From assembly GCF_036507355.1 (NCBI RefSeq), contig NZ_AP027877.1: a stretch of 64,000 nucleotides of DNA; one strand, given 5' to 3'. Positions 5,278 to 38,383 of the stretch are shown here, piece after piece (the stretch's first letter is position 1; every line of letters begins with the position of its first letter). The notes below the pieces were generated by a model. That model did no database searches, was not told the DNA's origin, and saw only the letters and a list, made by a program, of their open reading frames with translations. The translations under genes and the position numbers were made by a program. Source of the stretch: Escherichia coli (GTDB lineage Bacteria; Pseudomonadota; Gammaproteobacteria; Enterobacterales; Enterobacteriaceae).

Positions 5278-6150
5278 ATGACCATCTATACCTTATCTCA
5301 CGGGGGGCTCACGCTGGACGTTTCTGACCAGGGCGGTGTCATAGAAGGTTTCTGGCGTGATACGACGCCGCTCTTACGTCCTGGTAAAAAAAGCGGTGTG
5401 GCAACCGATGCCTCCTGTTTTCCGCTGGTGCCGTTTGCAAACCGGGTGAGCGGTAACCGTTTTGTCTGGCAGGGGCGTGAGTATCAACTGCAACCGAATG
5501 TTGAATGGGATGCGCACTATCTGCACGGCGACGGCTGGCTGGGGCAGTGGCAATGTGTCTCGCGCAGTGATGATAGCTTGTGTCTGGTATATGAACATCT
5601 CAGCGGTGTCTATCACTATCAGGTAAGTCAGGCGTTTCATTTAACGGCGGATACGCTGACGGTGACGCTCTCTGTCACCAATCAAGGGGCAGAGACGCTG
5701 CCATTTGGTACCGGCTGGCATCCTTATTTTCCGTTGTCGCCGCAAACGCGGATTCAGGCACAGGCGAGCGGTTACTGGCTGGAGCGGGAGCAGTGGCTGG
5801 CGGGTGAGTTTTGCGAGCAGCTACCGCAAGAATTGGATTTTAACCAGCTCGCGCCGTTGCCGCGCCAGTGGGTGAACAATGGTTTTGCCGGATGGAATGG
5901 TCAGGCCCGCATCGAGCAGCCGCAGGAGGGTTATGCCATCATCATAGAAACGACGCCACCTGCACCGTGTTATTTCATCTTTGTTTCCGACCCGGCGTTT
6001 GATAAAGGATATGCGTTTGATTTCTTCTGTCTGGAGCCGATGAGCCATGCGCCGGATGACCATCATCGCCCGGAAGGGGGGGACCTCATTGCGCTTGCGC
6101 CGGGGGAATCAACAACCTCAGAGATGTCGTTGCGGGTAGAGTGGCTGTAA
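5278..6150 (+). CDS. yphB: Aldose 1-epimerase family protein
   Basis: 290-aa ORF, AAGGAG SD; synteny. Confidence 0.88.
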   Translation: MTIYTLSHGGLTLDVSDQGGVIEGFWRDTTPLLRPGKKSGVATDASCFPLVPFANRVSGNRFVWQGREYQLQPNVEWDAHYLHGDGWLGQWQCVSRSDDSLCLVYEHLSGVYHYQVSQAFHLTADTLTVTLSVTNQGAETLPFGTGWHPYFPLSPQTRIQAQASGYWLEREQWLAGEFCEQLPQELDFNQLAPLPRQWVNNGFAGWNGQARIEQPQEGYAIIIETTPPAPCYFIFVSDPAFDKGYAFDFFCLEPMSHAPDDHHRPEGGDLIALAPGESTTSEMSLRVEWL

Positions 6151-24916: not shown

Positions 24917-25693
24917 ATGTCCGAAACAAAAAATGAACTTGAAGACCTGCTGGAAAAAGCAGCAACCGAACCGGCGCACCGCCCGGCTTTTTTCCGTACT
25001 CTACTGGAATCCACCGTCTGGGTGCCTGGTACGGCGGCGCAGGGCGAGGCTGTGGTTGAAGAGAGCGCGCTTGATTTACAGCACTGGGAAAAAGAAGACG
25101 GCACCAGCGTCATTCCTTTTTTTACCTCGTTAGAAGCACTTCAACAGGCGGTTGACGGCGAACAGGCATTTGTTGTAATGCCCGTTCGCACATTGTTTGA
25201 GATGACCCTTGGCGAAACGCTCTTCCTTAATGCCAAACTGCCAACCGGTAAAGAATTTATGCCGCGTGAAATCAGTTTGTTGATTGGTGAAGAGGGAAAT
25301 CCGCTGAGCAGTCAGGAAGTACTGGAAGGCGGCGAATCGCTGATATTATCGGAAGTCGCAGAGCCGCCAGCACAAATGATTGATTCACTCACCACCTTAT
25401 TTAAAACCATTAAACCAGTGAAGCGTGCTTTTATCTGTTCAATTAAAGAGAACGAAGAGGCACAGCCTAATTTACTTATTGGTATTGAAGCCGATGGTGA
25501 TATCGAAGAAATTATTCAGGCGGCGGGAAGTGTAGCAACCGATACATTACCTGGCGATGAACCAATCGATATTTGCCAGGTGAAAAAAGGGGAAAAAGGA
25601 ATTAGCCATTTTATTACCGAACATATTGCGCCATTCTATGAACGTCGTTGGGGTGGTTTTTTGCGTGACTTTAAACAGAACCGGATAATCTAA
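24917..25693 (+). CDS. sseB: SseB (enhanced serine sensitivity protein B)
   Basis: ORF MSETKNELEDLL (258 aa); the ORF track start at 24908 is a GTG; synteny next to pepB. Confidence 0.88.
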   Translation: MSETKNELEDLLEKAATEPAHRPAFFRTLLESTVWVPGTAAQGEAVVEESALDLQHWEKEDGTSVIPFFTSLEALQQAVDGEQAFVVMPVRTLFEMTLGETLFLNAKLPTGKEFMPREISLLIGEEGNPLSSQEVLEGGESLILSEVAEPPAQMIDSLTTLFKTIKPVKRAFICSIKENEEAQPNLLIGIEADGDIEEIIQAAGSVATDTLPGDEPIDICQVKKGEKGISHFITEHIAPFYERRWGGFLRDFKQNRII

Positions 25694-25694
25694 A

Positions 25695-26000
25695 ATATGC
25701 CGCCCCAAAGGGCGGCATTCGGGCTTACCTGCTGTTCTGAAGGTTGTTAACCACCAGTAAATTGTTGCCGGAGAGACTCAGGTTATTATTTACCTCGGTT
25801 AACAGCGCACCAGAAACAATAAGTACGATACAAAAGCACCGTATCTTCATTGTGCGGTCCATGCGAAGACCGCATCACGACAGCACCACTGGCGATATTG
25901 CCGCGATAGCAAGCGCTGTGAAACACCTGCATTTACGGCCACGGAACATCCTTTCCTAAAGCCAGCGCCCGTTTGCGAGACGGCGGAAAGGGCCGGTGTC
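25695..26000 (-). ncRNA. ryfA: RyfA-like RNA, copy 1 (mRNA for a small hydrophobic protein); 5' end not determined
   Basis: Minus-strand hairpin gccgccc-tttg-gggcggc plus AUAUUUUA tail at about 25695-25722; location between sseB and sseA as for K-12 ryfA. Confidence 0.5.
25725..25850 (-). CDS. timP: TimP-like small hydrophobic protein, 41 aa (MKIRCFCIVLIVSGALLTEVNNNLSLSGNNLLVVNNLQNSR), copy 1
   Basis: Intact ATG...TAA ORF on the minus strand, below the 60-aa ORF-track cutoff; hydrophobic N-terminus; terminator immediately downstream; weak SD. Confidence 0.5.
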   Translation of the reverse strand: MKIRCFCIVLIVSGALLTEVNNNLSLSGNNLLVVNNLQNSR

Positions 26001-26034
26001 GATAATACGCTAAATAAACAATAATTACTCTCTT

Positions 26035-26063
26035 TTGCTTGACAAAAAGAGAGTTGCTGGCGA
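26035..26063 (+). promoter_or_regulatory. Candidate sigma70 promoter of the divergent sRNA, copy 1
   Basis: TTGACA at 26035-26040, 17-bp spacer, GAATAT at 26058-26063. Confidence 0.4.
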
Positions 26064-26067
26064 ATAT

Positions 26068-26177
26068 TGCTCTGCTGTGAAGCACCTGCGTTGCTCATGC
26101 AACACAAGTCAATCTGCTGGAGAGGCCGCGAACCAAACCGGCAACAAATAACCGCCTGATTTTGGCGGTTTTTTGTT
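26068..26177 (+). ncRNA. TimR/RyfB-like antisense sRNA candidate, copy 1
   Basis: Promoter-like element upstream, terminator ccgcc-tgattt-ggcgg-TTTTTT at 26150-26177; 5' segment complementary to the copy-1 RyfA 5' UTR. Confidence 0.45.
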
Positions 26178-26378
26178 GCTTAAAGAAAGTGAATTTACAT
26201 GTTTAAGTAATATCTTTTACCGGTTAGTATTTTTAATATTGAGCGGGATTTGTTTATATTTGTCTGAATTCGGACTAATAAGCCAGGTCATTTTAATATC
26301 GAACATATTGCGCCATTCTATGAACGTCGCTGGGATGGTTTTTTGCGTGACTTTAAACAGAACCGGATAATCTAAAAT

Positions 26379-26680
26379 ATGCCGCCCCAAAGGGCGGCAT
26401 TCGGGCTTACCTGCTGTTCTGAAGGTTGTTAACCACCAGTAAATTGTCGCCGGAGAGACTCCGGTTATTATTTACCTCGGTTAACAGCGCACCAGAAACA
26501 ATAAGTACGATACAGAAGCACCGTATCTTCATTGTGCGGTCCATGCGAAGACCGCATCAAGACAGCACCACTGGCGATATTGCCGCGATAGCAAGCACTG
26601 TGGGGTGCCTGTATTTACGGTCATGGAACATCCTTTCCTAAAGCCATCGCCCGTTTGCGAGACGGCGAAAAGGGCCATTA
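26379..26680 (-). ncRNA. ryfA: RyfA-like RNA, copy 2; 5' end not determined
   Basis: Second copy of the same terminator hairpin and ORF-bearing block. Confidence 0.45.
26407..26532 (-). CDS. timP: TimP-like small hydrophobic protein, 41 aa, copy 2 (two substitutions relative to copy 1: L24R, N29D)
   Basis: Intact ORF MKIRCFCIVLIVSGALLTEVNNNRSLSGDNLLVVNNLQNSR on the minus strand. Confidence 0.5.
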   Translation of the reverse strand: MKIRCFCIVLIVSGALLTEVNNNRSLSGDNLLVVNNLQNSR

Positions 26681-26874: not shown

Positions 26875-27720
26875 TTATTTCACTGGCTCAACCGGTAAAT
26901 CTGCCCGCGCGCCCCATTCACTCCATGCGCCGTCGTACAGTTTCACGTTTGGCACATCCAGCGTCGCGAGTGCTAACAAAACCACGGCTGCCGTTACACC
27001 AGAGCCGCAGCTGACGATAATTGGTTTGTCGTAGCTGACGCCGCGACCAAAAAATATCGCATCCAGTTCATCGGTCGTTTTTAGTTCGCCTTCGCGCACC
27101 AGTTCCGTCCACGGAACGTTCAATGCACCGGGAATATGTCCGCGACGTAAACCTGGGCGAGGTTCATCAACTTCTGCGTTAAAACGTGCAGCCGGGCGGG
27201 CATCAATAATTTGCGCCGTATTTTCATGGCTTGCCAATAACACATCGGTTACTTTCACCACTGCTTCAGGATTAAACGCGGCGTTAAACTCTCCTTCCGG
27301 CAGCTCTACTGCACCTTCTTCTAACAACAGATCATCGCGCTGCCAGCCTGCAAGTCCACCCCCCAGAATCGACACTTTCTCTACACCAAAGGTGCGCAGC
27401 ATCCACCATGCTCGTGGGGCTGAGAAAAGATTACCTTCGTCATAGACAATCAGGTGCTTATCCTGGTTAACGCCTAATTCACGCATCGCCACGGCGAACG
27501 TTTCCGGGCGCGGCAGCATGTGCGGAAGCGGGGAAGTGTGATCAGAAAGCGCTTCGATATCAAAAAACACTGCGCCGGGAATATGTCCATTCAGATACTC
27601 CTGAGCAACGTTACGATCTTCCTGTCCAGGCGACGCCATGCGGGCATCGATAATCTGAATTTCCGGGTCATCAATATGTTCGGCGAGCCAGTCGGCTCCT
27701 ACAAACCATGTCGTGGACAT
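26875..27720 (-). CDS. sseA: 3-mercaptopyruvate sulfurtransferase (tandem rhodanese domains)
   Basis: Start MSTTWFVGADWL (281 aa); rhodanese active-site Cys (CGSGVTA); ORF track extends upstream to 27879. Confidence 0.93.
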   Translation of the reverse strand: MSTTWFVGADWLAEHIDDPEIQIIDARMASPGQEDRNVAQEYLNGHIPGAVFFDIEALSDHTSPLPHMLPRPETFAVAMRELGVNQDKHLIVYDEGNLFSAPRAWWMLRTFGVEKVSILGGGLAGWQRDDLLLEEGAVELPEGEFNAAFNPEAVVKVTDVLLASHENTAQIIDARPAARFNAEVDEPRPGLRRGHIPGALNVPWTELVREGELKTTDELDAIFFGRGVSYDKPIIVSCGSGVTAAVVLLALATLDVPNVKLYDGAWSEWGARADLPVEPVK

Positions 27721-27926
27721 AGGCATCTCCATTTTTGCCGGGGTTAGGCTAAATTGTCGGATGTTTAGTGAAAAGCGACAAGCAAAAGAGGCTGATTTGG
27801 CTGTCTGAGCCACAATTCTCACTAAAATTCGGATTGTATGGGCGTGATACTGAATTACATAACGTAAATTCTCACGCATAATAATTATTCGACGTTGCTA
27901 ACGGGCCATTGTGGCAGGGATGAAAA

Positions 27927-30900
27927 ATGAAAAAGTTACGCGTAGCCGCCTGCATGCTAATGCTGGCGCTGGCAGGGTGCGACAACAACGATAACGCGCC
28001 AACAGCGGTGAAAAAAGATGCGCCTTCTGAAGTTACTAAAGCGGCCTCTTCAGAAAACGCGAGTTCAGCAAAACTCTCCGTGCCGGAGCGACAAAAACTG
28101 GCACAACAGAGTGTAGGTAAGGCGCTGACATTACTGGATCTCTCTGAAGTCCAACTTAATGGTGCAGCCACGCTGGTGCTGACGTTCTCCATCCCTCTCG
28201 ACCCGGATCAGGATTTCTCACGCGTTATTCATGTCGTCGATAAAAAAAGCGGCAAAGTGGATGGTGCCTGGGAGTTGTCAGATAATCTTAAAGAGCTGCG
28301 TTTACGCCACCTCGAACCGAAACGTGATTTGATCGTTACTATTGGCAAAGAGGTCAAAGCACTCAACAACGCAACCTTCAGTAAAGATTACGAAAAAACT
28401 ATAACTACCCGCGATATCCAGCCCAGCGTCGGTTTTGCCAGCCGTGGTTCGCTGCTGCCTGGTAAAGTCGTTGAAGGGCTGCCGGTAATGGCGCTCAACG
28501 TTAATAATGTCGATGTTAACTTCTTCCGCGTTAAGCCAGAATCTCTGCCAGCATTCATTAGCCAATGGGAATACCGCAATTCGCTGGCGAACTGGCAGTC
28601 AGACAAACTGCTGCAGATGGCGGATCTGGTCTACACCGGACGGTTTGATCTCAATCCTGCGCGTAACACCCGTGAAAAATTATTGCTGCCGCTGGGCGAT
28701 ATCAAACCGCTTCAGCAGGCGGGCGTGTATCTGGCTGTGATGAATCAGGCTGGACGTTACGATTACAGTAATCCCGCGACGCTGTTTACGTTAAGTGATA
28801 TCGGCGTTTCAGCTCACCGTTATCACAATCGTCTGGATATCTTTACCCAAAGTCTGGAAAACGGCGCGGCCCAGCAAGGAATTGAAGTCTCTTTATTAAA
28901 TGAGAAAGGGCAGACTCTGACTCAGGCAACCAGTGACGCTCAGGGGCATGTGCAGCTGGAAAATGATAAAAATGCGGCATTACTGCTGGCACGTAAAGAC
29001 GGTCAGACAACGCTACTCGATTTAAAACTTCCGGCGCTGGACTTAGCAGAATTTAACATTGCAGGTGCGCCAGGCTATAGCAAACAGTTTTTCATGTTTG
29101 GCCCGCGCGATCTTTATCGCCCGGGTGAAACGGTAATCCTCAATGGTTTGCTGCGTGATGCAGACGGTAAAGCGTTGCCCAATCAACCCATCAAGTTAGA
29201 CGTGATTAAACCCGATGGGCAGGTACTCAGGAGCGTCGTTAGTCAGCCGGAAAATGGCCTCTACCACTTTACCTGGCCACTCGATAGCAATGCGGCAACC
29301 GGTATGTGGCATATTCGCGCTAACACGGGCGATAACCAGTATCGGATGTGGGATTTCCACGTCGAAGATTTTATGCCAGAGCGTATGGCGCTGAATCTGA
29401 CCGGTGAGAAAACCCCGCTTACGCCGAATGAAGAAGTGAAATTCTCCGTGGTGGGATACTACCTGTACGGTGCACCTGCTAATGGTAATACTTTGCAAGG
29501 GCAACTTTTCCTGCGCCCACTGCGTGAGGCTGTGTCAGCCTTACCTGGTTTTGAATTCGGCGATATAGCTGCCGAAAACCTTTCCCGCACGCTGGATGAA
29601 GTTCAGTTGACGCTGGATGATAAAGGGCGCGGCGAAGTTTCTACAGAAAGCCAGTGGAAGGAAACGCATTCCCCATTACAGGTTATTTTCCAGGGTAGTT
29701 TGCTGGAATCGGGCGGTCGCCCAGTGACGCGCCGCGCTGAGCAGGCTATCTGGCCTGCCGATGCATTGCCGGGGCTCCGTCCGCAGTTCGCCTCGAAATC
29801 GGTTTACGATTATCGCACTGACAGCACGGTGAAACAGCCCATTGTTGATGAAGGCAGTAACGCCGCTTTTGACATCGTTTATAGCGATGCGCAAGGCGTG
29901 AAAAAAGCCGTGTCGGGCTTGCAGGTGCGCCTGATTCGCGAACGCCGCGATTACTACTGGAACTGGTCAGAAGATGAAGGCTGGCAGTCACAGTTTGATC
30001 AAAAAGATCTGATCGAAAATGAACAAACTCTGGATCTGAAAGCGGACGAAACCGGCAAGGTCAGTTTTCCGGTAGAGTGGGGAGCTTATCGTCTGGAAGT
30101 CAAAGCGCCGAATGAAGCGGTCAGTAGTGTTCGTTTCTGGGCTGGCTATAGCTGGCAGGACAACAGCGACGGGAGCGGTGCCGTGCGACCCGACCGTGTC
30201 ACGCTGAAACTGGATAAAGCCAGTTATCGCCCTGGCGATACCATTAAGTTGCATATTGCCGCGCCAACGGCGGGTAAAGGTTATGCGATGGTCGAGTCCA
30301 GTGAAGGGCCGCTGTGGTGGCAAGAGATTGATGTTCCGGCTCAAGGGCTGGATCTGACGATTCCGGTCGATAAAACCTGGAATCGTCATGATCTTTATTT
30401 GAGTACGCTGGTGGTGCGTCCTGGCGATAAATCTCGCTCCGCGACGCCAAAACGCGCGGTTGGTGTGTTGCATCTGCCGCTTGGTGATGAAAACCGTCGC
30501 CTCGATTTGGCGCTGGAAACACCAGCAAAAATGCGTCCCAATCAACCATTAACCGTGAAAATTAAAGCCAGCACTAAAAATGGCGAGAAGCCTAAACAGG
30601 TGAATGTGCTGGTGTCTGCCGTTGATAGTGGTGTGCTGAATATTACTGACTACGTCACGCCAGATCCGTGGCAGGCGTTCTTTGGTCAGAAACGCTATGG
30701 CGCAGACATTTACGATATTTACGGTCAGGTTATTGAAGGTCAGGGGCGTCTGGCAGCTCTGCGTTTCGGTGGCGATGGTGATGAGCTGAAACGTGGTGGT
30801 AAACCGCCGGTCAATCACGTCAATATTGTCGCGCAGCAGGCGCTGCCGGTAACGCTCAACGAACAGGGCGAAGGCTCGGTTACACTGCCGATTGGCGATT

Positions 30901-32888
30901 TTAACGGTGAATTGCGCGTCATGGCGCAAGCCTGGACGGCAGATGACTTCGGTAGCAACGAAAGCAAAGTGATAGTTGCCGCACCGGTGATTGCTGAACT
31001 GAACATGCCGCGCTTTATGGCGAGTGGCGATACCTCGCGTCTGACGCTGGATATCACTAATCTTACCGATAAACCGCAAAAACTGAACGTTGCCCTGACC
31101 GCCAGTGGTTTGCTTGAACTGGTCAGCGATTCACCCGCAGCCGTTGAATTAGCGCCAGGTGTGCGTACTACGCTGTTTATCCCGGTGCGAGCATTGCCGG
31201 GTTATGGCGATGGAGAAATTCAGGCCACCATTAGCGGGTTAGCGTTACCGGGTGAAACCGTTGCCGATCAGCATAAGCAGTGGAAAATCGGCGTCCGTCC
31301 GGCGTTCCCGGCACAAACGGTTAATTACGGTACGGCGTTACAGCCTGGTGAGACATGGGCGATTCCGGCGGATGGATTGCAAAACTTCTCGCCTGTTACG
31401 CTGGAAGGGCAATTGTTGTTGAGCGGCAAACCACCGCTGAACATCGCACGTTATATCAAAGAGTTAAAAGCGTATCCGTACGGCTGTCTTGAGCAAACCG
31501 CCAGCGGCCTGTTCCCGTCACTTTATACCAACGCAGCCCAACTGCAGGCGTTGGGCATCAAAGGCGACAGTGATGAGAAACGCCGTGCATCGGTCGATAT
31601 CGGCATTTCCCGTTTGCTGCAAATGCAACGTGATAACGGCGGCTTTGCGCTGTGGGATAAAAACAGTGACGAAGAGTACTGGCTGACGGCTTACGTGATG
31701 GATTTCCTGGTCCGCGCAGGCGAACAGGGTTACAGCGTGCCGACAGACGCCATTAACCGGGGTAATGAGCGTCTGCTGCGCTATTTACAAGATCCGGGCA
31801 TGATGTCGATCCCGTACGCGGATAATCTCAAAGCCAGTAAATTCGCCGTACAGTCTTACGCTGCGCTGGTGTTGGCCCGTCAGCAAAAGGCTCCGCTGGG
31901 TGCGCTGCGTGAAATCTGGGAGCATCGTGCAGATGCCGCTTCTGGTTTACCGCTGCTGCAACTTGGCGTTGCGCTGAAAACCATGGGTGATGCAACGCGT
32001 GGTGAAGAAGCGATTGTGCTGGCGCTGAAAACGCCGAGAAATAGTGATGAGCGGATATGGCTGGGTGATTACGGTAGTCCACTGCGCGACAACGCGTTGA
32101 TGCTCTCCTTGCTGGAAGAAAATAAACTGCTACCCGATGAGCAGAACACTTTGCTGAACACGCTTTCGCAGCAGGCATTTGGTGAACGCTGGCTATCGAC
32201 CCAGGAAAGTAACGCGTTGTTCCTGGCTGCCCGTACGATTCAGGATTTACCCGGTAAATGGCAGGCGCAAACCTCTTTCTCAGCTGAGCCGCTGACAGGC
32301 GAGAAAGCGCAAAACAGTAATCTGAATAGCGATCAACTTGCTACCTTGCAGGTGACCAACAGTGGCGATCAGCCGTTATGGCTGCGTGTGGATGCCAGCG
32401 GTTATCCGCAATCCGCACCTTTACCGGCGAACAATGTGCTGCAAATCGAGCGTCATATTCTTGGTACTGATGGTAAGAGCAAATCGCTGGACTCGTTACG
32501 TAGCGGCGATCTGGTGCTGGTCTGGTTGCAGGTAAAAGCCAGTAACAGCGTGCCGGACGCGTTAGTCGTGGATCTGCTGCCTGCGGGTCTGGAACTGGAA
32601 AACCAGAATCTGGCGAACGGTAGCGCCAGCCTGGAGCAAAGTGGTGGCGAAGTGCAGAACTTACTGAACCAGATGCAGCAGGCGAGTATTAAGCACATTG
32701 AGTTCCGTGACGATCGCTTTGTGGCGGCGGTTGCCGTTGATGAATACCAACCGGTAACGCTGGTGTATCTGGCGCGGGCGGTGACGCCGGGAACGTATCA
32801 GGTACCGCAACCGATGGTGGAATCAATGTATGTTCCCCAATGGCGGGCGACCGGCGCGGCTGAAGATTTGCTGATTGTCAGACCGTAA
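27927..32888 (+). CDS. yfhM: Alpha-2-macroglobulin family lipoprotein (ECAM)
   Basis: 1653-aa ORF, lipoprotein signal LALAGC, thioester motif CLEQ at 31485-31496. Confidence 0.95.
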   Translation: MKKLRVAACMLMLALAGCDNNDNAPTAVKKDAPSEVTKAASSENASSAKLSVPERQKLAQQSVGKALTLLDLSEVQLNGAATLVLTFSIPLDPDQDFSRVIHVVDKKSGKVDGAWELSDNLKELRLRHLEPKRDLIVTIGKEVKALNNATFSKDYEKTITTRDIQPSVGFASRGSLLPGKVVEGLPVMALNVNNVDVNFFRVKPESLPAFISQWEYRNSLANWQSDKLLQMADLVYTGRFDLNPARNTREKLLLPLGDIKPLQQAGVYLAVMNQAGRYDYSNPATLFTLSDIGVSAHRYHNRLDIFTQSLENGAAQQGIEVSLLNEKGQTLTQATSDAQGHVQLENDKNAALLLARKDGQTTLLDLKLPALDLAEFNIAGAPGYSKQFFMFGPRDLYRPGETVILNGLLRDADGKALPNQPIKLDVIKPDGQVLRSVVSQPENGLYHFTWPLDSNAATGMWHIRANTGDNQYRMWDFHVEDFMPERMALNLTGEKTPLTPNEEVKFSVVGYYLYGAPANGNTLQGQLFLRPLREAVSALPGFEFGDIAAENLSRTLDEVQLTLDDKGRGEVSTESQWKETHSPLQVIFQGSLLESGGRPVTRRAEQAIWPADALPGLRPQFASKSVYDYRTDSTVKQPIVDEGSNAAFDIVYSDAQGVKKAVSGLQVRLIRERRDYYWNWSEDEGWQSQFDQKDLIENEQTLDLKADETGKVSFPVEWGAYRLEVKAPNEAVSSVRFWAGYSWQDNSDGSGAVRPDRVTLKLDKASYRPGDTIKLHIAAPTAGKGYAMVESSEGPLWWQEIDVPAQGLDLTIPVDKTWNRHDLYLSTLVVRPGDKSRSATPKRAVGVLHLPLGDENRRLDLALETPAKMRPNQPLTVKIKASTKNGEKPKQVNVLVSAVDSGVLNITDYVTPDPWQAFFGQKRYGADIYDIYGQVIEGQGRLAALRFGGDGDELKRGGKPPVNHVNIVAQQALPVTLNEQGEGSVTLPIGDFNGELRVMAQAWTADDFGSNESKVIVAAPVIAELNMPRFMASGDTSRLTLDITNLTDKPQKLNVALTASGLLELVSDSPAAVELAPGVRTTLFIPVRALPGYGDGEIQATISGLALPGETVADQHKQWKIGVRPAFPAQTVNYGTALQPGETWAIPADGLQNFSPVTLEGQLLLSGKPPLNIARYIKELKAYPYGCLEQTASGLFPSLYTNAAQLQALGIKGDSDEKRRASVDIGISRLLQMQRDNGGFALWDKNSDEEYWLTAYVMDFLVRAGEQGYSVPTDAINRGNERLLRYLQDPGMMSIPYADNLKASKFAVQSYAALVLARQQKAPLGALREIWEHRADAASGLPLLQLGVALKTMGDATRGEEAIVLALKTPRNSDERIWLGDYGSPLRDNALMLSLLEENKLLPDEQNTLLNTLSQQAFGERWLSTQESNALFLAARTIQDLPGKWQAQTSFSAEPLTGEKAQNSNLNSDQLATLQVTNSGDQPLWLRVDASGYPQSAPLPANNVLQIERHILGTDGKSKSLDSLRSGDLVLVWLQVKASNSVPDALVVDLLPAGLELENQNLANGSASLEQSGGEVQNLLNQMQQASIKHIEFRDDRFVAAVAVDEYQPVTLVYLARAVTPGTYQVPQPMVESMYVPQWRATGAAEDLLIVRP

Positions 32889-35201
32889 ATGCCTCGCTTG
32901 TTAACCAAACGCGGCTGCTGGATAACGCTGGCAGCTGCGCCATTTCTCCTTTTTCTTGCAGCGTGGGGAGCAGATAAACTCTGGCCTCTACCGCTGCATG
33001 AAGTCAATCCCGCACGAGTGGTCGTGGCGCAGGATGGTACGCCGCTCTGGCGCTTCGCCGATGCTGACGGCATCTGGCGTTATCCGGTAACAATCGAAGA
33101 TGTTTCTCCACGTTACCTTGAAGCGCTGATCAATTATGAAGATCGCTGGTTCTGGAAGCATCCGGGGGTGAATCCATTCTCGGTGGCGCGCGCAGCATGG
33201 CAAGATCTCACTTCGGGACGGGTTATTTCCGGTGGCAGCACGCTCACTATGCAGGTTGCTCGTCTGCTTGATCCTCACCCCAAAACATTTGGCGGCAAAA
33301 TTCGCCAGCTCTGGCGCGCGTTGCAACTGGAATGGCATCTGTCTAAGCGTGAAATTCTGACCTTGTATCTTAACCGCGCTCCGTTTGGCGGTACGTTGCA
33401 GGGGATCGGTGCGGCAAGTTGGGCTTATCTCGGAAAGTCGCCTGCGAATTTAAGCTATTCCGAGGCGGCAATGCTGGCGGTTTTGCCGCAAGCGCCCAGC
33501 CGTCTTCGCCCGGATCGTTGGCCGGAGCGTGCCGAAGCCGCGCGTAATAAAGTGCTCGAACGGATGGCCGTGCAAGGTGTGTGGTCCCGTGAGCAGGTAA
33601 AAGAGTCAAGGGAAGAACCCATCTGGCTGGCACCCCGACAAATGCCGCAACTGGCACCGCTGTTTTCGCGCATGATGCTCGGTAAAAGCAAAAGCGACAA
33701 AATCGTTACTACGCTGGATGCCGGTCTTCAACGACGTCTGGAAGAACTGGCGCAAAACTGGAAAGGACGTTTACCACCGCGCAGCTCACTGGCGATGATC
33801 GTGGTTGATCATACCGATATGCGTGTTCGCGGCTGGGTGGGATCGGTAGATCTCAACGATGATTCACGCTTTGGTCATGTTGATATGGTCAATGCGATCC
33901 GATCGCCAGGGTCGGTTCTCAAACCGTTTGTTTACGGTCTGGCGCTGGATGAAGGCTTGATCCATCCGGCATCGCTGTTGCAAGACGTCCCCCGGCGCAC
34001 CGGTGATTATCGACCAGGTAACTTTGATAGCGGTTTTCATGGCCCGATCAGCATGAGCGAGGCGCTGGTGCGCTCGCTGAATTTACCTGCTGTGCAGGTG
34101 CTGGAAGCCTATGGACCGAAACGGTTTGCGGCAAAATTACGCAATGTTGGATTGCCGTTGTATCTGCCCAACGGCGCTGCGCCCAATCTTTCGCTCATTC
34201 TCGGCGGTGCTGGTGCAAAACTGGAAGATATGGCGGCAGCGTATACCGCGTTTGCTCGCCACGGCAAGGCAGGCAAATTGCGCTTACAGCCTGACGATCC
34301 GCTGCTTGAACGGCCTTTAATGTCGTCGGGGGCTGCGTGGATCATTCGCCGGATTATGGCTGATGAAGCGCAACCCTTGCCGGATGGTGCCTTGCCGCGC
34401 GTCGCTCCACTGGCATGGAAAACGGGCACCAGCTATGGCTATCGTGACGCTTGGGCGATTGGGGTTAACGCTCGTTATGTCATTGGGATCTGGACTGGCA
34501 GACCGGACGGCACGCCCGTTGTTGGTCAGTTTGGTTTTGCCAGCGCCGTACCATTGTTGAATCAGGTCAATAATATCTTACTGTCGCGCAGTGCTAATCT
34601 GCCGGAAGACCCGCGCCCGAACTCAGTCACTCGTGGCGTTATCTGCTGGCCGGGCGGACAGTCTTTGCCGGAAGGTGACGGTAACTGTCGCCGCCGCCTG
34701 GCAACCTGGCTGCTGGACGGGAGTCAGCCGCCAACTCTATTACTGCCGGAGCAGGAAGGCATTAATGGCATTCGTTTCCCCATCTGGCTGGATGAAAATG
34801 GCAAACGTGTTGCCGCTGATTGCCCGCAAGCGCGACAAGAAATGATAAATGTCTGGCCGCTACCGCTGGAACCCTGGTTGCCCGCATCAGAACGTCGCGC
34901 TGTGCGCTTACCACCGGCCTCGACAATTTGCCCGCCATACGGTCACGATGCCCAGCTCCCGCTGCAGCTGACAGGCGTTCGCGATGGCGAGATTATTAAA
35001 CGTTTACCGGGCGCAGCGGAAGCGACTTTGCCGTTGCAATCAAGTGGAGGGGCAGGTGAACGCTGGTGGTTTCTGAATGGCGAACCGTTAACTGAACGCG
35101 GGCGCAACGTGACCCTGCATTTGACGGATAAAGGTGATTATCAATTGCTGGTGATGGATGACGTAGGGCAAATCGCGACAGTGAAATTTGTCATGCAATA
35201 G
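32889..35201 (+). CDS. pbpC: Penicillin-binding protein 1C (glycosyltransferase/transpeptidase)
   Basis: 770-aa ORF directly abutting the yfhM stop (TAAATG); GT51 and transpeptidase domains. Confidence 0.95.
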   Translation: MPRLLTKRGCWITLAAAPFLLFLAAWGADKLWPLPLHEVNPARVVVAQDGTPLWRFADADGIWRYPVTIEDVSPRYLEALINYEDRWFWKHPGVNPFSVARAAWQDLTSGRVISGGSTLTMQVARLLDPHPKTFGGKIRQLWRALQLEWHLSKREILTLYLNRAPFGGTLQGIGAASWAYLGKSPANLSYSEAAMLAVLPQAPSRLRPDRWPERAEAARNKVLERMAVQGVWSREQVKESREEPIWLAPRQMPQLAPLFSRMMLGKSKSDKIVTTLDAGLQRRLEELAQNWKGRLPPRSSLAMIVVDHTDMRVRGWVGSVDLNDDSRFGHVDMVNAIRSPGSVLKPFVYGLALDEGLIHPASLLQDVPRRTGDYRPGNFDSGFHGPISMSEALVRSLNLPAVQVLEAYGPKRFAAKLRNVGLPLYLPNGAAPNLSLILGGAGAKLEDMAAAYTAFARHGKAGKLRLQPDDPLLERPLMSSGAAWIIRRIMADEAQPLPDGALPRVAPLAWKTGTSYGYRDAWAIGVNARYVIGIWTGRPDGTPVVGQFGFASAVPLLNQVNNILLSRSANLPEDPRPNSVTRGVICWPGGQSLPEGDGNCRRRLATWLLDGSQPPTLLLPEQEGINGIRFPIWLDENGKRVAADCPQARQEMINVWPLPLEPWLPASERRAVRLPPASTICPPYGHDAQLPLQLTGVRDGEIIKRLPGAAEATLPLQSSGGAGERWWFLNGEPLTERGRNVTLHLTDKGDYQLLVMDDVGQIATVKFVMQ

Positions 35202-35264
35202 TCTGTTTTGTCCCTGATTGTTGCTTAAACTAGGTTTATTTTAAAAAAATGTTACCTTCATCAA

Positions 35265-35293
35265 TAGTCAACGGCTCTGTTGCTCATTATAAT
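35265..35293 (+). promoter_or_regulatory. Candidate sigma70 promoter of ndk
   Basis: TAGTCA -35, 17-bp spacer, TATAAT at 35288-35293. Confidence 0.45.
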
Positions 35294-35349
35294 CCGCGCC
35301 ATCTCGTACGCTGGTACAGACAACAACAGAACAATTTACAGAGGTAAAA

Positions 35350-35781: not shown

Positions 35782-35930
35782 TAATTTCGTAAATGCCGCG
35801 TGCAAACGTGGCATCCGTGCGCCAGAATTTGTACAATGCAGCGCCCCCGGACGAGCAGCCGCTCACCGGGGCGTTTCTTTTTTCAACCCTCCAGGGGCCA
35901 TAACGTGTAATAACGAGGCCGGAATAGCAT

Positions 35931-37369: not shown

Positions 37370-38383
37370 ATGAATACTGAAGCCACGCACGACCAAAATG
37401 AAGCACTTACTACCGGCGCTCGCCTGCGTAATGCTCGCGAACAACTAGGACTTAGTCAGCAGGCCGTTGCCGAGCGACTTTGCCTGAAGGTTTCCACGGT
37501 ACGCGACATTGAAGAAGATAAGGCACCCGCCGATCTTGCTTCAACATTCCTGCGCGGATATATCCGCTCTTATGCGCGTCTGGTACATATTCCAGAAGAA
37601 GAACTGCTGCCAGGGCTGGAAAAGCAGGCTCCACTACGGGCTGCAAAAGTTGCGCCGATGCAGAGTTTTTCCCTCGGTAAACGCCGCAAAAAACGCGACG
37701 GCTGGCTGATGACCTTCACCTGGCTGGTGTTGTTTGTGGTTATCGGCCTGAGCGGTGCCTGGTGGTGGCAAGACCACAAAGCTCAGCAGGAAGAGATCAC
37801 CACTATGGCCGATCAATCTTCGGCGGAACTGAGCAGTAATAGCGAGCAGGGGCAGAGTGTTCCGTTAAATACGTCGACAACTACAGACCCGGCTACAACG
37901 TCCACGCCGCCAGCGTCTGTGGATACTACCGCAACCAACACGCAAACACCTGCCGTAACTGCGCCAGCACCAGCTGTTGATCCGCAACAGAATGCGGTTG
38001 TTTCGCCTTCGCAGGCAAATGTTGATACCGCCGCGACCCCGGCACCAACGGCAGCAACAACGCCAGATGGTGCTGCGCCGTTGCCAACCGATCAGGCTGG
38101 CGTGACCACGCCGGTGGCTGATCCGAATGCGCTGGTGATGAACTTTACTGCCGATTGCTGGCTGGAGGTCACTGATGCTACCGGTAAAAAATTGTTTAGC
38201 GGTATGCAGCGTAAAGACGGTAATTTGAACTTAACCGGCCAGGCACCGTACAAACTGAAAATTGGTGCGCCAGCCGCAGTACAGATCCAGTATCAAGGGA
38301 AACCTGTCGATCTGAGTCGTTTTATCAGAACTAACCAGGTTGCGCGTCTGACCCTCAATGCCGAACAATCACCGGCGCAGTAA
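37370..38383 (+). CDS. rodZ: Cytoskeleton protein RodZ
   Basis: 337-aa ORF: N-terminal HTH, single TM segment, Pro/Thr/Ala-rich linker, C-terminal domain. Confidence 0.93.

Follow-up and report, generated by a model that had tools for sequence, protein, structure and literature searches.

Does the gene for an alpha-2-macroglobulin (A2M) that lies directly before the gene for a penicillin-binding protein (PBP) in Escherichia coli encode a working periplasmic protease trap, and do the two genes serve a joint role in defence of the envelope? We addressed this question at the yfhM–pbpC locus of contig NZ_AP027877.1 (assembly GCF_036507355.1), within a stretch of 64,000 nucleotides numbered from its first letter (the window). 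The gene yfhM (27927–32888, + strand) is an ATG open reading frame (ORF) for a protein of 1653 amino acids, the inner-membrane lipoprotein alpha-2-macroglobulin known as ECAM. The gene pbpC (32889–35201, + strand), also an ATG ORF, encodes 770 amino acids and corresponds to penicillin-binding protein 1C (PBP1c), a class A PBP with peptidoglycan glycosyltransferase activity. Judging from sequence comparisons, we put the probability that this region is the E. coli chromosomal yfhM–pbpC locus in an intact and functional state at about 95%. It is an ordinary, intact E. coli pair, the ECAM gene followed by the PBP1c gene. The pair is textbook-level known biology with nothing new in it, and the YfhM protein has already been crystallised.

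The identity of the locus is supported by its distribution and gene order. An 8.1-kb query around it finds a counterpart, at 90–99.1% identity, in 5425 of 5426 complete E. coli genomes. All of these matches are chromosomal, and the genes are annotated there as sseA (− strand), yfhM (“alpha2-macroglobulin”), pbpC (“peptidoglycan glycosyltransferase PbpC”) and ndk. The order in the window is that of K-12 in reverse orientation (pepB, sseB, ryfA/timP, sseA / yfhM, pbpC, ndk, rlmN, rodZ, ispG). Assembly GCA_016660925.1 encodes an identical YfhM protein and is unlike the window at 1 of 10,962 bases, and the exact protein was found on seven contigs of public assemblies. A first-pass annotation, made from the letters alone, had recognised the pair as A2M and pbpC and had labelled it known biology. 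Both statements were borne out: the RefSeq annotation, the Pfam architecture, the NCBIfam equivalog and the PDB matches are concordant, and ECAM structures (4rtd, 4ziq and 5a42) have already been solved. Nothing speaks against the gene identities.

The N-terminus of YfhM reads MKKLRVAACMLMLALAGC and then D. The lipoprotein signal peptide is encoded at 27927–27983 (+ strand), and its lipobox LAGC lies in the N-terminal sequence MKKLRVAACMLMLALAGCD, with Cys18 (codon 27978–27980) directly followed by Asp19. In Lol sorting, an aspartate at position +2 is a signal for retention in the inner membrane. Neves et al. (PMC3328433) described a signal peptide and a lipoprotein box in ECAM, and their mature soluble construct begins at Asp19; the lipobox cysteine of the window protein agrees with the descriptions in PMC3328433 and PMC3735191. 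Eleven Pfam domains of the A2M type scored above their gathering thresholds, in the order expected for the full bacterial A2M set (bMG1, A2M_bMG2, bMG3, MG2, bMG5, bMG6, A2M_BRD, A2M, TED_complement, CUB_A2MG and bMG10). The ORF aligns end to end with the ECAM entries 4rtd, 4ziq and 5a42 (E = 0); in the phmmer search, the match to 4rtd reached 3650 bits (E = 0) over query residues 23–1653.

The thioester site, Tyr1183-Pro-Tyr1185-Gly-Cys1187-Leu-Glu-Gln1190, is encoded at 31473–31496 (+ strand), and its numbering is identical to that of ECAM (PMC4498604). The codons TGT CTT GAG CAA at 31485–31496 are in frame ((31485 − 27927)/3 = 1186) and specify Cys1187-Leu-Glu-Gln1190, in the context tac ggc tgt ctt gag caa acc. 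Cys1187 and Gln1190 are also the thioester residues of the E. coli protein whose crystal structure is known, where Tyr1183 and Tyr1185 belong to a hydrophobic pocket that protects the bond (PMC4498604). The bait region (30693–30815, + strand) contains Arg923–Leu942, Arg956, Gly958 and Asn963; this stretch is identical to that of K-12, and the nearest substitution is V969A. After cleavage by elastase, Arg923–Leu942 is disordered, and Arg956, Gly958 and Asn963 then contact the C-terminal MG domain (PMC4498604). Two motifs of that domain are also present. The RDDR motif (residues 1594–1597, 32706–32717, + strand) has a role in contacts with the thioester domain (TED) or the cleaved bait, and the ExMY motif (Glu1632-Ser-Met1634-Tyr1635, 32820–32831, + strand), which is ESMY in the window, covers the thioester in the native state (PMC4498604). 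Thus, every residue named in the ECAM structure paper (pocket, thioester, bait, RDDR and ESMY) is present in YfhM. The thioester residue numbers equal those of ECAM, and the alignment with the PDB entries spans the full ORF; the motif, the ORF and the junction with pbpC are not products of chance.

A 1653-residue lipoprotein with CLEQ at 31485–31496 had been proposed by the first-pass annotation, and the ORF and the in-frame motif were found as it described; the lipobox cysteine agrees with a lipoprotein. On re-inspection, the CxEQ motif was undisrupted. Its further statement that the intact thioester indicates a functional protease trap is supported with one reservation: the motif is intact, but CxEQ is necessary and not sufficient. 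The case for function follows instead from the approximately 99% identity to a biochemically characterised protein (16 amino acid differences from K-12 YfhM). Thioester formation and covalent protease trapping were shown for the K-12/BL21 protein (PMC3328433, PMC4498604), the trapping by ECAM in vitro, and we infer both for the window allele from this identity. By all sequence-level criteria, YfhM is classified as a type I thioester-containing bacterial A2M and an orthologue of ECAM/YfhM.

The downstream protein is assigned, on the criteria tested, to PBP1c, a class A penicillin-binding protein. It scored 1568.6 bits against the NCBIfam equivalog NF008414 (cut-off 1121) and 919 bits against TIGR02073 (cut-off 494.2), and its Pfam composition is Transgly, Transpeptidase and BiPBP_C. 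Motif 1 of GT51, EDRWFWKHPG (residues 84–93, with Glu84), is encoded at 33138–33167 (+ strand) and is followed by GGSTLTMQ at residues 115–122. The transpeptidase-fold motifs Ser342-Val-Leu-Lys, Ser396-Leu-Asn and Lys511-Thr-Gly (33912–34427, + strand) keep the SxxK/SxN/KTG pattern, as SVLK at 342–345, SLN at 396–398 and KTG at 511–513. The gene is 98.27% identical in nucleotide sequence to b2519 of K-12, and 5 of the 770 amino acids differ (T273V, S336A, S500G, S680I and A701E).

The following mechanism, with its residue roles, is taken from PMC4498604, PMC3328433 and PMC5764988. YfhM would be exported and lipid-anchored through Cys18, and Asp19 would hold it in the inner membrane as a monomeric, 13-domain periplasmic A2M. 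A protease that reached the periplasm would cut the exposed bait at approximately residues 923–963. The freed bait would displace the C-terminal MG domain (RDDR, ESMY) from the TED, and the uncovered Cys1187–Gln1190 thioester would react with a lysine of the protease to form a covalent tether, the “snap-trap”. In the structural work, the bait is untethered by cleavage and wins the competition with the TED for the C-terminal MG domain; the TED swings by approximately 36 Å, and the thioester is exposed (PMC4498604). Small-angle X-ray scattering and electron microscopy detected a conformational change of ECAM with methylamine, chymotrypsin and elastase (PMC3328433). This monomeric trapping mode is named “snap-trap” in PMC12939704, which cites Garcia-Ferrer et al. 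2015. In our reading of the locus, PbpC is a class A PBP, anchored in the membrane, that contributes glycosyltransferase activity, and its translation probably depends on ribosomes that terminate on yfhM (translational coupling).

Comparison with known systems places both proteins closest to their K-12 counterparts. The ECAM/YfhM protein b2520 (4rtd, 4ziq, 5a42) shares with window YfhM its length of 1653 residues, the lipobox, the domain order, CLEQ at 1187–1190, the tyrosines, RDDR, ExMY and the genomic position, and is unlike it at 16 allelic substitutions. Likewise, E. coli PBP1c (b2519) has the same 770 residues, Transgly, Transpeptidase and BiPBP_C domains and NCBIfam equivalog as window PbpC, and is distinguished by five allelic substitutions only. 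The Salmonella enterica protein SaA2M (4u48, 4u4j, 4u59) resembles YfhM in its type I class, 13-domain fold, thioester with a tyrosine “lock” and adjacent pbpC, but it is an orthologue from another genus with its numbering shifted by 8 (Tyr1175/1177 versus Tyr1183/1185). Entry 4u48 matches YfhM residues 18–1653 (E = 0), and ECAM and SaA2M are 82% identical (PMC4498604). Type II A2M, represented by MagD of Pseudomonas aeruginosa, resembles YfhM in its superfamily fold, in having a bait region and in being periplasmic and associated with the inner membrane, whereas it lacks CxEQ and the lipobox cysteine and is encoded in a multi-gene mag-type operon that is not beside pbpC (PMC5764988, PMC3735191). 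An assignment to this MagD-like type was rejected, as the window protein has CLEQ, Cys18 and a pbpC neighbour. More distantly, human alpha-2-macroglobulin and complement C3 share the MG-domain scaffold, the bait-triggered exposure of a Cys–Gln thioester and covalent capture, and the sequence search returned human A2M, CD109 and C3 with weak yet significant scores (7voo, 6tav, 9fx2 and 8cem). Human A2M is a tetrameric cage (“Venus flytrap”), whereas bacterial A2M is a monomeric “snap-trap”, and their identity is approximately 12% (PMC4498604). The bacterial protein additionally has two more N-terminal MG domains and a lipid anchor.

Whether the two genes act together is a separate matter, which concerns first their transcription. 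The genes yfhM and pbpC are very probably transcribed together from the divergent sseA/yfhM intergenic region (27721–27926, assigned to neither strand), for which the end of sseA at 27720 was taken from the ET350 and K-12 annotations. Upstream of yfhM there is a weak sigma-70-like match, ATTACA-17-CATAAT (27854–27882, 9/12). The terminator scan detected no terminator-like hairpin between yfhM and pbpC or between pbpC and ndk, and the first such site on the + strand lies past ndk (35860–35873). The pbpC–ndk spacer (35202–35349, + strand) contains a promoter-like site for ndk at 35265–35293 (TAGTCA-17-TATAAT, 10/12). The counts from the promoter and terminator scans equal those of shuffled sequence, and the scans therefore carry little weight for the operon structure.

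Within E. coli, the two genes are almost always adjacent: the junction region (31000–33500) is covered in 5424 of 5425 genomes. The window has the arrangement of the class 1 locus of Budd et al. 2004, with pbpC immediately downstream on the same strand. Beyond the species, we sampled the synteny of six full-length CxEQ homologues from outside the enterobacteria (34–48% identity). A gene with Transgly, Transpeptidase and BiPBP_C domains lies directly downstream on the same strand in three of them (loci L008, L010 and L011), with a 20-nucleotide spacer in L010 and an 11-nucleotide overlap in L011. This sample agrees with the statement that A2M and PBP1c are “frequently found in an operon” (PMC4498604). 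The joint role, in which A2M blocks invading proteases and PBP1c repairs the peptidoglycan, was proposed by Budd et al. 2004, according to PMC4498604, PMC5764988 and PMC6131605. The first-pass annotation had spoken of a conserved A2M/PBP1c periplasmic defence pair. Its conservation holds for adjacency in E. coli, but more widely the pairing is frequent and not universal, and the joint role is a published hypothesis; we likewise treat the combined role of trapping a protease and repairing the wall as inferred.

Several observations weigh against a functional pair, and all of these weak points concern function in vivo. Shuffled sequence yields promoter-like matches as good as the one upstream of yfhM. 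Genomic SELEX (systematic evolution of ligands by exponential enrichment) lists a peak of the RpoE (sigma-24) holoenzyme inside yfhM, at K-12 coordinate 2649866 (PMC5493296); this site, which lies upstream of pbpC, could be an envelope-stress promoter that drives pbpC separately. In E. coli NCTC9100 (NZ_LR134239.1), the sole genome among the 5425 without the junction region, yfhM is intact, and pbpC and ndk are cleanly deleted: at 5889–6066 of that sequence, the match to the window ends 19 nucleotides into pbpC, and rlmN follows 176 nucleotides after the yfhM stop. The loss indicates that the partner is not strictly required by the A2M. No adjacent PBP1c was found for the other three distant thioester A2M homologues (L009, L012 and L013). 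The first phenotype ascribed to PBP1c, and the only one found in the literature, is that it compensates for PBP1b when overproduced, a back-up glycosyltransferase function that has nothing to do with proteases (PMC6131605), and papers give the joint defence role only as “proposed” or “postulated”. On these grounds, yfhM and pbpC might be co-located and co-expressed but functionally independent, with ECAM trapping alone and PBP1c serving as a spare glycosyltransferase, in which case the term “defence pair” over-reads synteny. We regard such independence as possible but doubtful. The same-strand adjacency recurs at 34–48% identity in unrelated contexts, with spacers of −11 to +20 nucleotides in two cases, a pattern that is difficult to account for unless co-expression was selected, and the junction is invariant among E. 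coli alleles that differ by 5%.

A different doubt concerns YfhM itself, which might be a decaying or inactive copy that has kept its motif and lost the trap. The gene is 98.57% identical in nucleotide sequence to b2520 of K-12, and 16 of the 1653 amino acids differ (A63V, V66A, D78N, K501N, D502E, I617L, R804P, V969A, G1247S, A1364V, S1385P, Y1407N, Q1455P, V1472A, S1477T and M1488V). These differences, R804P, Q1455P and S1385P among them, are what would suggest a loss of function. Nevertheless, the ORF of 1653 codons is uninterrupted, and none of the 16 substitutions in YfhM, or of the five in PbpC, falls on a named functional residue; in YfhM, the lipobox, bait residues 923–963, the thioester pocket, RDDR and ExMY are all untouched. 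The ratio of nonsynonymous to synonymous substitution rates (dN/dS) against K-12, calculated by the Nei–Gojobori method, is 0.095 for yfhM and 0.056 for pbpC, which indicates strong purifying selection on both genes. Furthermore, the occurrence of the exact protein in public assemblies speaks against decay, as does the sharing of eight of the 16 K-12 differences with ET350, which differs from the window protein at eight positions, four of them on the K-12 list. An inactive allele or pseudogene is thus very improbable and was rejected, and the 16 substitutions, conservative to moderate in nature, are ordinary allelic variation in an intact gene.

K-12, ET350, three divergent E. coli alleles and NCTC9100 all agree with the window in CLEQ, in its YPYG context and in the TAAATG junction. 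Against an allele of 94.7% identity, the lowest divergence among ten 250-nucleotide bins is in the one just 3′ of the thioester codons, with 3 differences compared with 6–25 in the others. In a census of the 150 best representatives of 50%-identity clusters, queried with the C-terminal half of YfhM, CxEQ was present in 149; the remaining one is a fragment whose first residue lies past the motif. CLEQ occurs in 119 of these 149 (one of which also has CGEQ), and the others have CAEQ, CIEQ, CTEQ, CVEQ, CSEQ or CGEQ.

A deep allele class was seen in window region 31000–33500, which comprises the 3′ third of yfhM and the 5′ end of pbpC: among the 5425 genomes, 811 are no more than 90–95% identical there, as against 19 in this band over the whole 8.1 kb. 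The differences are mainly synonymous (17–19 amino acids per approximately 660 residues) and spare the thioester. This pattern suggests old recombinant alleles rather than diversifying selection. The allele of KY 1497 has a one-codon deletion at Ser1373.

At the junction itself (32886–32891, + strand), the yfhM stop codon TAA (32886–32888) abuts the pbpC start codon ATG (32889–32891) with no spacer, in the context aga ccg taa atg cct, and the two ORFs are in the same reading frame. The same TAAATG junction was found in K-12 and five further E. coli loci. The first-pass annotation was therefore right that the stop codon is immediately followed by the pbpC start; its description of the genes as directly fused holds for the missing spacer but not for the products, which are two separate polypeptides because the TAA stop is intact. 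Although the shared frame leaves the stop codon alone between the ORFs, read-through of TAA into a 2424-residue A2M–PBP1c fusion protein has a negligible probability and was rejected, since TAA is an efficient stop kept in all E. coli loci checked, the genes of distant homologues overlap by 11 nucleotides in different frames or lie at least 20 nucleotides apart with no conserved fusion, the N-terminal membrane anchor of PbpC placed after a periplasmic A2M would, to judge from topology, leave the PBP domains at the wrong face of the membrane, and RefSeq annotates two coding sequences.

The two cistrons differ in their ribosome-binding signals. Upstream of yfhM, the Shine–Dalgarno (SD) sequence AGGGA lies at approximately 27916–27920, and its duplex with the anti-SD sequence has a ΔG of −6.0 kcal/mol. 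No SD sequence was found for pbpC within 32867–32891, where the anti-SD duplex is at +0.4 kcal/mol, weaker than 94% of in-frame positions within yfhM. By the same measure, rodZ (start at 37370) is likewise without a detectable SD sequence (+0.6 kcal/mol). Because pbpC has no SD sequence and its ATG abuts the yfhM stop, translational coupling by termination and reinitiation is likely to be the way in which pbpC is translated. The SD-less pbpC and the missing terminator-like site are together consistent with an operon, without being proof of one.

Other features of the window were recorded beside the locus. The longest ORF of sseA (26875–27879, − strand) has 334 codons from its first ATG, whereas the gene in K-12 and ET350 has 281 codons (846 nucleotides, 26875–27720); the longer version, which runs into the yfhM promoter region, is an ORF-calling artefact. 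Antisense ORFs in the region (minus strand, at most 185 amino acids) were dismissed as mechanical; they lie within a strongly constrained coding region and are uncalled in annotated genomes. An Rfam scan of the whole window found no RNA family within 27927–35201. Just upstream of sseA, the window contains a duplicated toxin/small RNA (sRNA) module (25692–26678, − strand), in which two full-length ryfA sRNA matches, at 25692–25996 (314 bits) and 26374–26678 (315 bits), flank an IS128 sRNA match (26132–26342). K-12 has a single ryfA/timP locus here, and ET350 is annotated with two timP small-toxin genes.

Further downstream, between der and xseA, the region 44818–49573 (+ strand) encodes a SinH-type inverse autotransporter of 726 amino acids with an IAT_beta domain, followed by an ORF of 321 amino acids without a Pfam match and one of 460 amino acids with InvE_AD and BIg21 adhesion domains. 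An ES036/CssrF sRNA match lies at 48098–48140. A larger adhesin gene may once have been present, of which the short adhesin ORFs would be the remains. Between yfgH and yfgG, there is an IS1 element at approximately 55470–56237 (− strand), with an exact 23-nucleotide terminal repeat at 56215–56237 and ORFs of the sizes of InsA (55907–56182) and InsB (55485–55988). A match to at least 80% of 54293–57088 exists in only 42 of the 5426 complete E. coli genomes, and the insertion is therefore lineage-specific.

The discovery value of the locus is small: it is a core E. coli gene pair, and several crystal and cryo-electron microscopy structures of ECAM exist. It is useful as a positive control, in which motif, coordinates and interpretation have all been verified. 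It also marks three questions for the field, namely the co-transcription of yfhM and pbpC, their translational coupling, and a joint A2M/PBP1c defence of the envelope. Neves et al. speculated on the flexible C-terminus of ECAM in complex formation with PBP1c. As a tentative extension, the invariant zero-spacer, SD-less junction might mean that PBP1c is made only by ribosomes that have just finished ECAM, which would fix a low ratio of PBP1c to ECAM and bring the two proteins to one shared area of the inner membrane, where they might form a physical complex. If this reading of coupling and complex formation were true, the 20-year-old “defence and repair” hypothesis would become a concrete, testable coupling mechanism.

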